This document shows, one piece after another, positions 40,176 to 40,528 of a stretch of 64,000 nucleotides of DNA. Source of the DNA: Eledone cirrhosa (Eukaryota); assembly GCA_964016885.1 (NCBI GenBank), contig OZ024741.1, positions 165,850,001 to 165,914,000 on the forward strand, given 5' to 3'. The translations under genes and the position numbers were made by a program. The notes under the pieces are model-generated. The model ran no database searches. It was given only the letters and a program-made list of their open reading frames with translations, and was not told the DNA's origin. Each line of letters begins with the position of its first letter. Within the stretch, counting starts at the first letter, position 1.

Positions 40176-40528
40176 ATATTGTTATACTTTGGGAGGGTCA
40201 TGTTGCCAATAAGAAACACACGCACCAGTCGTTTTCACTCCAATTTATTATAAATTAAATTATAAATTTAAAAATTTATAAATTTCCGGTTGGTTGGTTG
40301 GTTCCACAACCGGACGGTTGTTCATATATTGTCACTGAAGAAGTCACAGCATGTGTGACGAAAGAACTTTGACCATATATGAACAACCGTCCGGTTGTGG
40401 AACCAACCAACCAACCGGAAATTTATAAATTTTTAAATTTATATTTTAATTTATAATAAATTGGAGTGAAAGTAACTGACGCATGTGTTTCTTATTGGCA
40501 ACATGACCCTCCCAAAGTATAACAATAT
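40176..40528. repeat. Long palindrome (about 158-bp arms) capped by a hammerhead
   Basis: Arms nearly perfectly complementary; left end abuts (TA)n. Confidence 0.92.
40331..40373 (+). ncRNA. Type I hammerhead motif at the palindrome apex
   Basis: GTCA-CTGAAGA-A-GTCACA(GCATG)TGTGAC-GAAA-GAAC-TT-TGAC. Confidence 0.75.

Follow-up and report, generated by a model that had tools for sequence, protein, structure and literature searches.

A hammerhead motif in the loop of a 159-bp hairpin in Eledone cirrhosa, most likely left by a head-to-head Penelope-type insertion

Introduction

Minimal hammerhead ribozymes occur in the Penelope-type elements (PLEs) of animals; their helix II is long, their helix I is short, and a base is conserved between positions 9 and 10.1 (PMC4209133). 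The consensus in supplement file 2 of that paper reads CUGANGAH, GNNNNN...NNNNNC, GAAAN, a palindrome, NU and H. A single minimal motif assayed there gave no detectable self-cleavage and dimers gave only low activity, and an anole PLE hammerhead required protein for cleavage (PMC11167929). The role of the hammerhead in endonuclease-bearing (EN+) PLEs is described as still unclear in PMC8557442.

The insertions of EN+ PLEs have a characteristic layout. An inverted 5'-truncated copy, a tail on one side only and a bias for (TA)n targets are described in PMC8557442. Head-to-head copies are the most frequent PLE form in PMC3846280, where palindromes at the junction are read as self-priming. According to PMC11167929, both target strands are extended and the tail equals the distance between two reverse-transcription start sites. 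A further group, the animal non-LTR retrozymes, forms head-to-tail tandems with canonical, often efficient hammerheads and circular RNA (PMC7229834).

Here we describe a hammerhead-bearing hairpin in a 64,000-nt stretch of the E. cirrhosa contig OZ024741.1 (hereafter the window). A sequence-only reading had proposed that its plus-strand transcript is a long dsRNA that nicks itself open. Our analysis suggests, at a probability of about 85%, that the locus is a product of PLE machinery: a 407-bp unit of a hammerhead family set in (TA)n, in which an inverted tailless copy and a direct tailed copy stand head to head.

Results and Discussion

The loop carries a motif of the minimal PLE hammerhead type

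The loop of the hairpin contains what appears, from its sequence, to be a minimal type I hammerhead of the kind known from PLEs. Stem I consists of 4 bp, GTCA (40331-40334) with TGAC (40370-40373), and is followed by the core CTGAAGA (40335-40341) and an extra A at 40342. Stem II (40343-40348 with 40354-40359) has 6 bp, a 5-nt loop and the closing pair G40343-C40359. GAAA follows at 40360-40363 and the CUU triplet at 40367-40369, with cleavage predicted after 40369. Stem III comprises only an A-U and a G-C pair around a 2-nt AA loop. The motif thus has the CUGANGA and GAAA core, the NUH cleavage triplet, the extra base between positions 9 and 10.1, the G10.1-C11.1 pair and the long stem II of the PLE type. 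The extra A after CUGAAGA had been pointed out before; it is present, but it belongs to the PLE consensus CUGANGAH and is not unusual.

A hammerhead descriptor matched six times in the window; in 30 simulated sequences of 64 kb it matched 0.13 times on average, and a stricter form that the loop motif satisfies matched in none of the 30. By contrast, no part of the window reached the gathering score of an Rfam family, and the 47 weak matches in 39900-40900 include no hammerhead family. Weak Rfam miRNA matches at the hairpin were set aside as an effect of generic hairpin shape.

Compared with the PLE minimal hammerheads of PMC4209133, the motif shares CUGANGAH with the extra base, the G-C closing pair, the 6-bp stem II, the short stem I and the tiny stem III, and its family shares their mostly dispersed, single-copy occurrence. 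The oyster PLE motif in supplement file 2 and the loop motif both read CUGAAGAA, with U at the cleavage base. The 13-nt core string was absent from the supplement files of PMC4209133 and PMC8557442 that were searched. The published consensus fits at every position except loop 3, which is AA here and leaves no clean palindrome. Over positions 15.2-16.2 and loop 3, G and C pair around the AA loop, so that four of six positions are paired; the self-duplex is predicted at +1.4 kcal/mol, and a dimer helix would hold two A.A mismatches. The second difference is that stem I is here prolonged by a 159-bp mirror.

The hairpin is part of a 407-bp two-copy unit

The hammerhead had been described as capping a near-perfect hairpin of about 160 bp, and this description is borne out: the arms are 159 nt each, separated by a 35-nt spacer and complementary at 151 of 159 positions. 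The unit does not end with the arms at 40176 and 40528, as had been assumed, but continues through a 54-nt tail to 40582 (Table 1). Its order from left to right is (AT)n, inverted tailless copy, direct tailed copy, (AT)n, and the whole is set within a (TA)n run. The two copies measure 159 and 252 nt, and neither holds an ORF. A target-site duplication is not readable within (TA)n and no empty site was seen. The 64-kb window holds no second copy of the hairpin arms.

Table 1. Features of the hairpin unit, in window positions
Feature	Positions	Strand	Basis or remark
(AT)n microsatellite, likely left part of target site	40161..40180		overlaps first bases of the arm; (TA)5 flush with left end
Inverted, 5'-truncated, tailless copy of family 3' end	40176..40334	-	reverse complement of 40370-40528
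Stem I 5' strand, 4-nt microhomology at inversion junction	40331..40334	+	family contigs diverge before 40331
Putative minimal type I hammerhead core	40335..40369	+	descriptor match and published PLE consensus; predicted cut after 40369
Direct copy, 3' part (right arm), to tailless 3' end	40370..40528	+	inverted-repeat match; family contig ends
Optional 54-nt 3' extension (PLE 'tail'), this end only	40529..40582	+	family depth; contig ends behind 40583
(AT)n microsatellite, likely right part of target site	40583..40627		sequence

Stem I was thought to run straight into the arms. GTCA/TGAC does adjoin them, but one T.C mismatch (40330/40374) intervenes. In the family at large, a pairing A occupies this site in 91% (X1) and 99% (X6) of the depth in two public sequencing runs.

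The mismatches between the arms are not evenly spread. Six of the eight, all of them transitions, lie within 12 nt (40472-40483 against 40221-40232), a cluster with p of about 8e-5 under uniform placement, and the X1 majority letter is on the left arm at six of the seven mismatch sites listed. Simple decay of an initially perfect snap-back does not explain the cluster, whereas two templates with slight differences, or a conversion patch formed later, would account for it; the cluster favours these readings without proving either. Separately, A-to-I editing was considered as the source of the arm mismatches and ruled out, the right-arm changes being mixed (G>A twice, T>C, C>T, A>T and A>C).

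Unmirrored copies of the family are common and end at two alternative points

Public sequencing runs were used to examine the family to which the hairpin belongs. Among 23 runs listed, 18 held part of the stretch, seven of them at a share of at least 0.2 and from four organism labels; the 11 runs with a share below 0.2 were left out. None of the listed runs holding the stretch was an RNA run, which carries no information on expression. Four runs (X1, X6, X7 and X19) were compared over 40290-40584, counting contigs at least 80% alike. Family contigs numbered 9,315 in X1 (of 16.3 million records), 8,320 in X6 (of 17.6 million) and three in X7. X19 gave 61 partial reads covering an AT-rich patch only and was set aside. 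These counts indicate that the hairpin sequence belongs to a high-copy repeat family. Exact-pattern scans of metagenome contigs and viral contigs found nothing.

Contigs that leave the window sequence just before 40331 numbered 119 in X1, 199 in X6 and one in X7, with a consensus ending in CCCA. Unmirrored copies are therefore common, and the mirror starts exactly at stem I. This comparison with unmirrored copies had been suggested together with the sequence-only reading. Upstream of CCCA, consensus agreement within the family is only 0.57-0.58. Contigs that fit both arms numbered 531 (X1) and 179 (X6), so the mirrored share of the family is uncountable.

At the other end, 157 contigs in X1 and 197 in X6 run into (AT)n behind 40528, and 75 in X1, 76 in X6 and one in X7 run into (AT)n behind 40583. 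The family thus has two alternative 3' ends, 54 nt apart. In X6, depth peaks at 915k over 40360-69, in the hammerhead, and at 1,144k over 40510-19, at the 3' end, with 52k and 2.7k between them; depth in Logan contigs does not measure copy number, and indels, as opposed to relaxed selection, may account for the loss of the AT-rich middle. Positions 40490-40528 are part of the deepest-covered stretch of the family. The core is conserved, as had been expected if the motif is real: among the 40 of 61 variant rows listed for contigs at least 80% alike, none lies in 40335-40368. The cleavage base 40369 shows T>A in 15% of X1 depth, a change that remains allowed under the NUH rule (PMC2238771).

The layout points to a 5'-truncated PLE insertion

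The unit shares with EN+ PLE insertions (PMC3846280, PMC8557442, PMC11167929) an inverted truncated copy beside a direct copy, a palindrome at the junction, a tail that is optional and on one side only, a (TA)n target, and a hammerhead upstream of two 3' ends. Because unmirrored copies exist, the family has two 3' ends, the tail is one-sided and the unit lies in (TA)n, the hairpin is most likely a by-product of a 5'-truncated PLE insertion. It differs from the described insertions in three respects. Truncation has left copies of 159 and 252 nt that lack an ORF, the tail is 54 nt and thus longer than the 30-40 bp cited for PLEs, and the junction lies exactly on stem I and the cleavage site. No description of a junction placed in this way was found in the literature searched, which took in few subscription papers. 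As a single locus, the unit is ordinary transposon debris in a textbook PLE layout.

A plausible course of events is as follows. A PLE reverse transcriptase with a GIY-YIG domain would nick both strands of a (TA)n target. One cDNA would be primed at the tailless start, 40528, and stop at 40370; another would be primed at the tailed start, 40582, and stop at 40331. The 3' ends of the two cDNAs would then join through the 4-nt GTCA/TGAC match supplied by stem I. The same junction would also result from one cDNA that folded back on itself at stem I. The hammerhead would have been inherited from the pseudo-LTR of the element, in which its activity probably depends on dimerisation or on help from protein.

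The same layout recurs in the window. Of nine long palindromes that are not microsatellites, seven have (TA)5 no more than 5 nt away at one end and at a distance of 54-99 nt at the other; given the direction, 3% of random positions lie that close to (TA)5 by chance. The two palindromes with a different layout lie at 1037-1195 and 31658-31792. Several of the window palindromes carry whole or partial hammerheads of unrelated sequence, and the genome carries several families of short head-to-head inserts with junctions in or near a ribozyme.

A coding source for the family was sought among PLE proteins. Compared with 31 PLE-type proteins, the hairpin element gave no match below E 0.45, and no ORF was linked to the family. 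A decayed PLE ORF fragment from the reverse transcriptase thumb region lies at 33932-34280 (+), with 52% identity to P0001 (E 6e-23). A direct homolog search with the frame 33911-34231 returned none and an exhaustive search returned four. The fragment has 25 longer relatives, including proteins of about 750 aa with RT and GIY-YIG domains, and these relatives carry the CX4CxxC linker of the Neptune/Nematis kind, a motif given in PMC8557442. The remnant lies 6 kb from the hairpin, and no link to the hairpin's family was established. The frame 39526-39651, which looked PLE-like by eye, was rejected after domain and homolog searches came back empty (best E 0.45).

In a variant of this insertion model, the junction would record cleavage in vivo. 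The inverted arm would then be the run-off cDNA of a hammerhead-cut RNA, annealed through stem I to cDNA from an uncut RNA, with its end at 40370 marking the cut. We regard this as improbable, although several features agree with it. As the reverse complement of 40370-40528, the left arm corresponds exactly to the predicted 3' cleavage product and ends at the first base past the predicted cut. The clustered arm differences are as two templates might give. Stem I is one of 44 nearby matches of at least 4 bp, 15 of which have two or more G-C pairs, and it is not the strongest of them. Against this, the 3' strand of stem I always starts at the cut, so any junction formed at stem I would look alike without cleavage. 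Five other window palindromes with a recognisable hammerhead, or with the 3' half of one, have arms that both continue across the cut site. Position 40370 is not among the loose-end positions listed for the family contigs, and no position was recorded as a common start or end. PMC11167929 reports that reverse transcription in vitro used mainly uncut RNA and that RNA-seq reads ending at the cut were absent. If cleavage were nonetheless responsible, such palindromes, at about one per 10 kb in the window, would document in the genome that minimal PLE hammerheads cut in vivo and would supply natural data on the two-primer insertion model. Junction positions across the genome would bear on whether cleaved RNA ever serves as a template.

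A different source element is also conceivable, though we consider it doubtful: the family could be a tandem non-LTR retrozyme, a short circular-RNA element, and not the pseudo-LTR of a coding PLE. Like animal retrozymes (PMC7229834), the family is a short, non-coding, AT-rich repeat with a putative type I hammerhead. No ORF was found, and in one X6 contig tail-like sequence leads back into 40335, a head-to-tail joint of the tandem type. Animal retrozymes have themselves been proposed to be non-autonomous PLE derivatives (bioRxiv 10.64898/2026.07.22.740005). However, no tandem copy is present at the locus or in the window, where the copies stand head to head. Retrozymes are defined on canonical type I hammerheads (PMC7229834), whereas the loop motif is of the minimal PLE type, with the extra base and a 6-bp stem II, and the tail and head-to-head inversion are PLE marks. 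A retrozyme source would alter the identity of the source element, not the insertion mechanism.

Folding predictions suggest that this copy of the hammerhead is locked

That a transcript would form a long dsRNA agrees with the predicted folds, which give a duplex of about 159 bp from either strand. The plus strand of the hairpin folds at -248.5 kcal/mol (z = -34), with none of 100 shuffled sequences equally stable, and the opposite-strand transcript at -253.4 kcal/mol. Within the plus-strand fold, stems I and II are preformed at probabilities of 0.94-1.0 (stem II 0.96-1.0). In the unmirrored form, 40331-40582, stem I has a probability of 0.01, suggesting that the mirrored arms hold stems I and II in place. 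The catalytic core and the 6-bp stem II do lie in the loop, as had been claimed together with stem III; the folding model, unable to close loops of 2 nt, assigns stem III a pair probability of 0.0.

Self-nicking of the monomer is unlikely because stem III consists of 2 bp with a 2-nt loop. A double-hammerhead dimer is predicted at -492.6 kcal/mol compared to -497.0 kcal/mol for two monomers, 3-4 kcal/mol less stable with kinetics outside the model, and the stem III pairs cost 4.4 kcal/mol in the modelled dimer. Judging from the topology, dimerisation would require a swap of stem I between two molecules. Since stem I is continuous with the arms, such a swap would mean opening or branch-migrating them. 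A nick would release nothing because both products stay co-folded, at -249.7 kcal/mol. Collectively, these predictions suggest that the hammerhead of this copy cuts poorly or not at all on its own. With the hammerhead predicted to be locked as an inactive monomer, the hairpin would be a by-product and not a device.

These results bear directly on the proposal that the locus is transcribed as a self-nicking long dsRNA serving as a regulated Dicer or ADAR substrate. The stability of the hairpin, its preformed stems I and II and the support of stem I by the arms speak for it, and rotifer PLE copies yield small RNAs (PMC3846280). The view of a hairpin built to nick itself open is nevertheless hard to maintain with so minimal a stem III, an unfavourable dimer and products that stay paired. 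Moreover, the same layout occurs in seven of the nine window palindromes, in several unrelated families and with the hammerhead placed differently. A Pfam search found no host gene near 40 kb; it covered 111 frames, of which five were longer ones and 106 came from the 120 low-repeat frames that lie beyond 19.5 kb and measure 55 aa or more, and matched LINE-type RT, PHD finger, weak DDE and weak C2H2 domains. We therefore consider the proposal very unlikely. Whether cleaved or not, such inserts would readily supply long dsRNA if they were transcribed within host RNAs.

Least probable of all is a DNA element of the MITE or foldback kind, mobile as one hairpin, with terminal inverted repeats of 159 bp, a TA duplication and the hammerhead in its spacer. 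It would account for the long near-perfect arms, the TA-rich flank and the lack of coding capacity. However, contigs without the mirror at stem I number in the hundreds, the family has two alternative end points, the 54-nt family tail is present on the right end and absent from the left, and symmetric terminal inverted repeats are not shared by all copies.

Other hammerheads and repeats in the window

Three further hammerhead-related families were observed in the window. The second family, with complete minimal hammerheads, occupies 50819-51447, 52898-53250, 49288-49447 and 20804-20989. Its hammerheads at 49349, 51346, 50920(-), 53147 and 53001(-) have a stem I of 8-10 bp and an 8-nt palindromic stem III, and are better candidates for a dimer assay than the motif at 40335-40369. 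Two of its members are head-to-head palindromes in which each arm carries a hammerhead and only one side has a tail.

The third family (CGAAACGG, likely a hammerhead 3' half) has a tail of about 75 nt and lies at 34966-35090, 50595-50718, 40022-40160, 57300-57456 and 33735-33818. In two of its copies the fold-back lies within the presumed stem II. Immediately before the hairpin unit is the copy at 40022-40160, whose (AT)n end contains the unit. The fourth family, at 55334-55449, forms a 52-bp perfect palindrome with CTGATGA in the loop, (TA)n flush on the right and a tail of about 67 nt on the left; an unmirrored copy lies at 32940-33001 (-). Isolated hammerhead-like cores at 54880, 49962(-), 32448 and 31731 fail the stem I criterion.

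The remaining repeats are of other kinds, and the overall repeat content appears typical of an octopod. LINE remnants with RT and a PHD-finger-like cysteine cluster were found at 6030-7422, 11525-14335 and 18108-18752 (Pfam, frames at 11.5-13.1 kb). A 256-bp perfect inverted repeat, with its arms 670 nt apart, adjoins a DDE transposase remnant (weak DDE_3; 2261-3442 and 3479-4309). A 72-bp tandem unit forms two arrays, at 4578-5630 and 7406-9076, which are about 97% alike, and has dispersed relatives at about 1946, 10712 and 25042.
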